NCBI RefSeq assembly: GCF_001677475.2
Contig: NZ_CP015229.1
From: Escherichia coli
GTDB taxonomy: Bacteria; Pseudomonadota; Gammaproteobacteria; Enterobacterales; Enterobacteriaceae
Reading direction: 5' to 3' (one strand)
Length of the DNA: 64,000 nucleotides
In this document: piece by piece, positions 41,891 through 42,460 of the stretch
Layout: every line of letters begins with the position of its first letter
Position numbering within the stretch: position 1 is the first letter of the stretch
Notes under the pieces: model-generated
Told to the model about the DNA's origin: nothing
Database searches by the model: none
The model's input: the letters and a program-made list of their open reading frames with translations, nothing else
Position numbers and translations under genes: made by a program

Positions 41891-41974
41891 TTATCTTTTA
41901 GGCGTTCAATTTAAGTAGCCCAAAGCGGGCTGCTTACTGGAAGCGCCCGCCTGGTGACTAAAACTCCGAAGGGA

Positions 41975-42460
<486 letters not shown>

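Follow-up and report, generated by a model that had tools for sequence, protein, structure and literature searches.

A short rpsG allele in Escherichia coli, very probably the ancestral form, and the intercistronic spacer behind the C-terminal extension of K-12 S7

Introduction

Ribosomal protein S7 of Escherichia coli is found in a form of 156 amino acids and in one of 179 amino acids. In the str operon analysed here, rpsG stops after codon 156 and is followed by a run of in-frame sense codons. This raises the question which of the two forms is the original one, and whether the codons behind the stop are a silent part of the gene or simply the space before fusA. That S7 differs between K and B strains is reported to have emerged from protein sequences determined in the late 1970s and from a comparison of the str operons of Salmonella and E. 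coli in 1992.

Strain EMG2, like MG1655 and W3110, carries an rpsG mutation extending the S7 C-terminus together with Thr246 in RF2 (prfB T246) (PMC9997739). In its passage on these changes, the same paper ties the rpsG and RF2 alterations of K-12 to poor UGA termination and SsrA-tagged S7 (PMC9997739, citing Schaub & Hayes 2011). By implication, it also suggests that the K-12 stock WG1 is free of the rpsG mutation, which would place the change after K-12 had been isolated. In evolved MG1655, rpsG L157* (TTA to TGA) and a 1-bp deletion arose (PMC5691611). These mutations were read as fixing a defective 23-aa extension that is confined to K-12-derived strains and raises degradation (PMC5691611). 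The 179-codon form is thus a well-known laboratory mutation of K-12: the literature already covers the extension, the SsrA tagging it brings about and how it is lost time and again when strains evolve in the laboratory. The allele described here is an ordinary one.

Sequences and comparisons

The window is a stretch of 64,000 nucleotides from an E. coli contig (NZ_CP015229.1), and all coordinates refer to it unless stated otherwise. For allele counts, an 81-nt query centred on the rpsG stop codon was used, and exact matches in complete E. coli genomes were recorded. Spacers between rpsG and fusA were compared in ten sources, namely the window, Salmonella, Enterobacter oligotrophicus, a metagenome contig, Pantoea, Xenorhabdus, Plesiomonas, Sodalis, Actinobacillus and Gilliamella.

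The rpsG gene and its stop codon

Open reading frames in the window follow the order S12, S7, EF-G, EF-Tu (rpsL-rpsG-fusA-tufA), as in the str operon. The features at the end of rpsG are as follows.

41975 to 42445, minus strand: rpsG (ribosomal protein uS7), 156 codons and TAA, ATG at 42445 (open reading frame list and sequence)
41975 to 41977, minus strand: TAA stop of rpsG, with its middle base (41976) as the sole difference from MG1655 in 581 nt; K-12 has TTA (Leu157)
41909 to 41974, minus strand: 22 in-frame sense codons (SLRSFSHQAGASSKQPALGYLN), spacer here and translated only in the long allele of K-12
41906 to 41908, minus strand: TGA used by the 179-codon allele of K-12, 27 nt upstream of the fusA ATG (sequence)

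The S7 protein of the window exactly matched the entry 'MULTISPECIES: 30S ribosomal protein S7 [Enterobacteriaceae]', which is present on at least 1000 contigs. Pfam family PF00177 (Ribosomal_S7) is precomputed for the identical protein. Both the open reading frame list and the sequence place the C-terminus at ...AFAHYRW, directly followed by TAA. With a stop at codon 157 and a product of 156 aa, the gene is the short (B-type or wild-type) allele. It is not the long K-12 allele, as the middle base of the codon at 41976 (minus strand) is A and not T.

The preliminary description of this DNA had called rpsG a 156-codon allele ending in AFAHYRW-TAA at 41975-41977, and had counted 22 sense codons from there to a TGA at 41906-41908. 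The open reading frame list and the sequence agree with the first statement, and coordinates and translation of the second match the sequence. The segment given there started at 41903, which is 3 nt past the TGA.

Comparison with K-12 MG1655 and B REL606

MG1655 and the window were identical at 580/581 positions in an alignment that spans rpsG together with flanking sequence. In MG1655, rpsG is annotated with 540 nt and 179 aa (3543..4082 of the retrieved MG1655 segment). This long allele (b3341, NP_417800.1, 179 aa) shares all 22 downstream codons and the TGA with the window, but reads TTA (Leu157) in place of TAA and thereby gains LSLRSFSHQAGASSKQPALGYLN. The tail of the K-12 protein is thus L plus exactly the 22 residues SLRSFSHQAGASSKQPALGYLN. 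The calculated mass of S7 without initiator Met is 19,888 Da for the long K-12 form and 17,473 Da for the short form.

In E. coli B REL606, rpsG is annotated with 471 nt and 156 aa (WP_001138043.1, also annotated in strains MEI003 and 19451123) and is identical to the window through the TAA, the spacer and the start of fusA. In the alignment, the 22 downstream codons were nucleotide-identical in K-12 and REL606.

It had been proposed that K-12 carries a sense codon where B strains stop. The alignment with MG1655, in which the one differing base turns TAA into TTA, and the short 156-aa gene of REL606 with the same TAA and spacer bear this out. Two outcomes would have spoken against the proposal, namely a TAA in K-12 as well, or a different set of 22 codons in strains with the long form. 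K-12 was found to read TTA, and its 22 codons are identical to those of the window.

The accompanying suggestion that the DNA does not come from K-12 also holds. A 6-kb comparison of the window with MG1655 gave 98.9% identity, and the differences were scattered along its length. Identity to REL606 was 98.5% over 33.5 kb, with evenly spread mismatches. The rpsG gene itself is without difference from the B-type gene, and the chromosome around it has diverged by 1.2-1.5% from REL606 and the best-matching complete genome. A short rpsG is a marker against an MG1655/W3110/EMG2-type K-12 origin; it rules out only this lineage, and the strain is otherwise unspecified by it.

Allele frequencies in E. 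coli

The 81-mer with TAA, as in the window, was found exactly in 5012/5425 complete E. coli genomes (about 92%), and the one with TTA, as in K-12, in 348/5425. About 65/5425 genomes contained neither 81-mer exactly. The one genome inspected among these ~65 (strain 19451123) has a C-to-T change in the loop of the spacer hairpin described below and is still of the short form.

Sixty of the 348 TTA genomes were listed. They carry names or sources of K-12 derivatives or laboratory strains (for example MG1655, C600, J53, DH5alpha, DH1, RR1, HMS174 and evolved MG1655 lines), with the exception of one uninformative name, WCHEC035053S1G0. The 60 listed records range from 4.46 to 4.79 Mb. Judged from these 60 of 348, a natural non-K-12 isolate with TTA is possible.

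Protein records show the same distribution. The cluster of 156-aa S7 holds 4548 member sequences vs 104 for the 179-aa form, and nearly all S7 homologues listed for Enterobacterales and Pasteurellaceae have 156 aa. Among Protein Data Bank entries, 319 use the 179-aa sequence and 44 the 156-aa one. This excess reflects the habit of using K-12 as reference, not biology. An atypical and mildly defective S7 in the K-12 reference is relevant to ribosome proteomics, structure deposition and annotation.

Annotation of the long form is itself inconsistent. In NZ_CP110814.1 (strain THB42-F4, a transconjugant), the NCBI pipeline calls the K-12-type long rpsG a pseudogene ('incomplete; missing C-terminus'), whereas MG1655 has it as an ordinary CDS of 179 aa. 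The search for rpsG in E. coli genomes also gave 1/5425 matches on a plasmid-labelled record and 1/5426 genomes without any match, both of which are probably oddities of assembly or labelling.

Ancestral state of the stop codon

S7 has 156 aa in 10/10 spacer sources (Enterobacterales, Pasteurellales, Orbales), and TAA followed by T stands at the homologous position in all ten. The earlier statement that most other enterobacteria make the 156-aa form is in line with Salmonella, Enterobacter, Pantoea, Xenorhabdus, Plesiomonas, Sodalis and others.

The frame behind the stop differs from genus to genus. In Salmonella, two small indels shift the TGA out of frame, and the rpsG frame is stop-free into fusA. 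The continuation in Pantoea is stop-free up to fusA as well, but its spacer is out of frame with fusA. In Xenorhabdus, Plesiomonas, Sodalis, Actinobacillus and Gilliamella, the continuations contain one to five in-frame stops. In 3/10 taxa, the number of spacer nucleotides is not divisible by 3. Nucleotide conservation of the spacer is strong among Escherichia, Salmonella and Enterobacter, and its apparent non-coding status in these three genera follows from indels close to the TGA and from the genera farther away.

Since TAA+T and a 156-aa S7 recur in 10/10 spacers and the downstream frame is not conserved, the short 156-codon rpsG is very probably ancestral. At about 92% of complete genomes it is the norm of the species, and the allele of the window is an ordinary example. 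The mutation would then have run from TAA to TTA in K-12.

According to this explanation, S7 translation would end at an efficient UAA-U after codon 156, and the next 96 nt would form an untranslated intercistronic spacer with a stem-loop and the fusA ribosome-binding site. Replacement of one base, TAA to TTA, would have given rise to the 179-codon form, which became fixed in K-12 of the MG1655/W3110/EMG2 lineage. Ribosomes of K-12 would pass the spacer hairpin and reach a UGA that precedes fusA by 27 nt. As spacer in the rpsG frame, the 22 codons would be open largely by chance and would be no conserved coding reserve.

The length of the open run fits such an origin. Inter-stop intervals of at least 22 codons make up 33% of all intervals in the window and 42% of those after long open reading frames, and the geometric expectation for an open run of at least 22 codons is 0.35. 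The length of the 22-codon run is therefore not statistically unusual; the run is meaningful through the comparison with K-12, not through its length.

The preliminary description had spoken of a latent C-terminal extension that can be reached by a single point mutation or by stop-codon readthrough. The point mutation stands, as K-12 differs at one base (TTA) and does reach the extension. The term latent extension is less apt: the segment appears to be intercistronic spacer in the rpsG frame and not a dormant coding segment, with a frame that is not conserved outside Escherichia. The extension itself presumably has no function. Readthrough is taken up below.

The rpsG-fusA spacer and the start of fusA

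The rpsG-fusA spacer measures 96 nt (41879-41974) and has the same 96-nt length in Escherichia, Salmonella and Enterobacter. It contains a stem-loop and leads into fusA.

41920 to 41954, minus strand: spacer stem-loop CCAGGCGGGCGCUU-CCAGU-AAGCAGCCCGCUUUGG, about 14 bp with two bulges (MFE and centroid folds)
41876 to 41888, minus strand: fusA translation start, Shine-Dalgarno GAGG at 41885-41888 and ATG at 41876-41878 (sequence)
39764 to 41878, minus strand: fusA, EF-G, 704 aa (open reading frame list)

GAGGAA plus ATGGCTCGT is conserved in 8/10 spacers, and a purine-rich motif resembling a ribosome-binding site is present in 10/10. In Plesiomonas, fusA starts with GTG. The distance from the S7 stop to fusA is 27 nt in K-12 vs 96 nt in the wild type.

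Conservation of the spacer could also mean that it acts as a cis-regulatory RNA, be it as an mRNA processing or stability element, as a partial terminator or as a modulator of rpsG-fusA coupling. In that case, the K-12 mutation would disturb the hairpin by sending ribosomes through it. A hairpin was predicted at the equivalent mid-spacer place in 9/10 spacers, with unrelated sequences in the distant genera. Fold z-scores reached -4.8 in Plesiomonas, which has a perfect 13-bp stem, -2.9 in Gilliamella and -2.6 in Xenorhabdus. The fixed length of 96 nt in Escherichia, Salmonella and Enterobacter, and the reported coupling of EF-G translation to rpsG (PMC10931766), are likewise consistent with a regulatory role.

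Against it, the fold of the E. coli spacer is not exceptional (z = -1.5). Two-sided compensatory changes were not found among the alignable Enterobacteriaceae sequences, which all share one and the same 5' arm of the hairpin. A scan of 41700-43100 against Rfam (E-value up to 10) gave no family for the hairpin, and the spacer was empty in a consensus scan for promoters and terminators. Behind the stem comes UUUGGGCUACUU instead of a U-tract, and the hairpin does not qualify as an intrinsic terminator or attenuator; the spacers of Plesiomonas and Actinobacillus look more terminator-like than that of E. coli. Literature found on the rpsG-fusA spacer consisted of a 3'-end peak and an attenuator prediction, both in Streptococcus, and of an unrelated note on strain construction, with none on E. 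coli. Taken with the points in its favour, a regulatory RNA in the spacer is possible but rather doubtful. It is compatible with an ancestral short allele and not opposed to it. In the more specific form, that the hairpin at 41920-41954 is an undescribed conserved cis-element setting EF-G output relative to S7 by processing, stability or coupling, the idea is an unlikely one.

The classical S7-coupled translation of fusA was reportedly worked out in K-12. If the spacer hairpin regulates EF-G expression, conclusions on str operon coupling that are based on K-12 might need re-checking, and if the hairpin is such an element, the K-12 picture of coupling may not hold for wild-type E. coli, to which the strain of the window belongs.

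In the Salmonella-type spacer (1669-1776 of the retrieved segment), fusA shares the frame that follows rpsG, and a single mutation of the stop there would join S7 to EF-G instead of giving a short tail. In the Rfam scan of 41700-43100, mir-67 and a TMV pseudoknot were the only hits, both at chance level and far below their gathering scores.

Readthrough and the reverse order of events

Both release factors recognise UAA, and among the termination signals of E. coli UAAU is the most efficient. Wild strains could nevertheless make some 179-aa S7 as a conditional isoform, by low-level or regulated readthrough that the hairpin might stimulate. Like programmed readthrough extensions, rpsG has an open frame after its stop (here 22 codons) and a stable RNA hairpin downstream. 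It differs from them in its strong UAA-U stop, in a hairpin 23 nt away and in a tail that is not conserved between genera. The stop context should not be a leaky one, as UAA is followed by U in each of the 10 taxa and this is the strongest context for termination in E. coli. Stimulators of readthrough typically begin roughly 8 nt after the stop, whereas this hairpin begins at 23 nt. Nor is there a conserved extension as expected for programmed readthrough: the continuations differ, hold stops or enter fusA, and a ribosome reading through in Salmonella would produce an S7-EF-G fusion. The extension has, moreover, been reported as defective in K-12 (PMC5691611). Meaningful readthrough of the rpsG UAA-U thus seems unlikely, and a regulated 179-aa isoform in wild strains highly improbable. 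Of the two routes to the extension named in the preliminary description, the invariant UAA-U and the unconserved tail speak against this one.

The reverse order of events, in which the long form was ancestral, E. coli was overtaken by a TTA to TAA nonsense mutation and the 22 codons are a coding tail that fell silent recently, would suit the intact codons that are nucleotide-identical to the translated K-12 tail, but it is scarcely credible given that all outgroup spacers have TAA at the homologous codon and a 156-aa S7, that the continuation frame is not conserved among genera, that TTA occurs only in K-12-type strains among the matches listed, and that truncating mutations were selected in evolved MG1655 (PMC5691611).

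Further observations on the window

Between 43000 and 44000 (tusB/tusC), the window has 40 mismatches to MG1655 (about 4%), compared with 1 to 6 per kb in the neighbouring kilobases. The tusB/tusC stretch is a local divergence hotspot adjoining the str operon.

Among complete RefSeq E. coli genomes, the best identity to the window was 98.8% over 30001-55000 and 99.4% over 1-25000, with evenly spread mismatches. The draft assembly GCA_027552025.1 is 99.7% identical to the window over 13.8 kb. Judging by these identities, the E. coli lineage of the window seems to be poorly represented among complete genomes.

On a contig of another E. coli assembly, GCA_033625155.1 (14822-16600 of the retrieved segment), tufA, bfd, bfr and a prepilin peptidase gene are directly followed by rpsJ. 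This contig is without chiA and most of the gsp cluster, which the window has at this place, and identity between the bfd-bfr segments of contig and window is only 79%.
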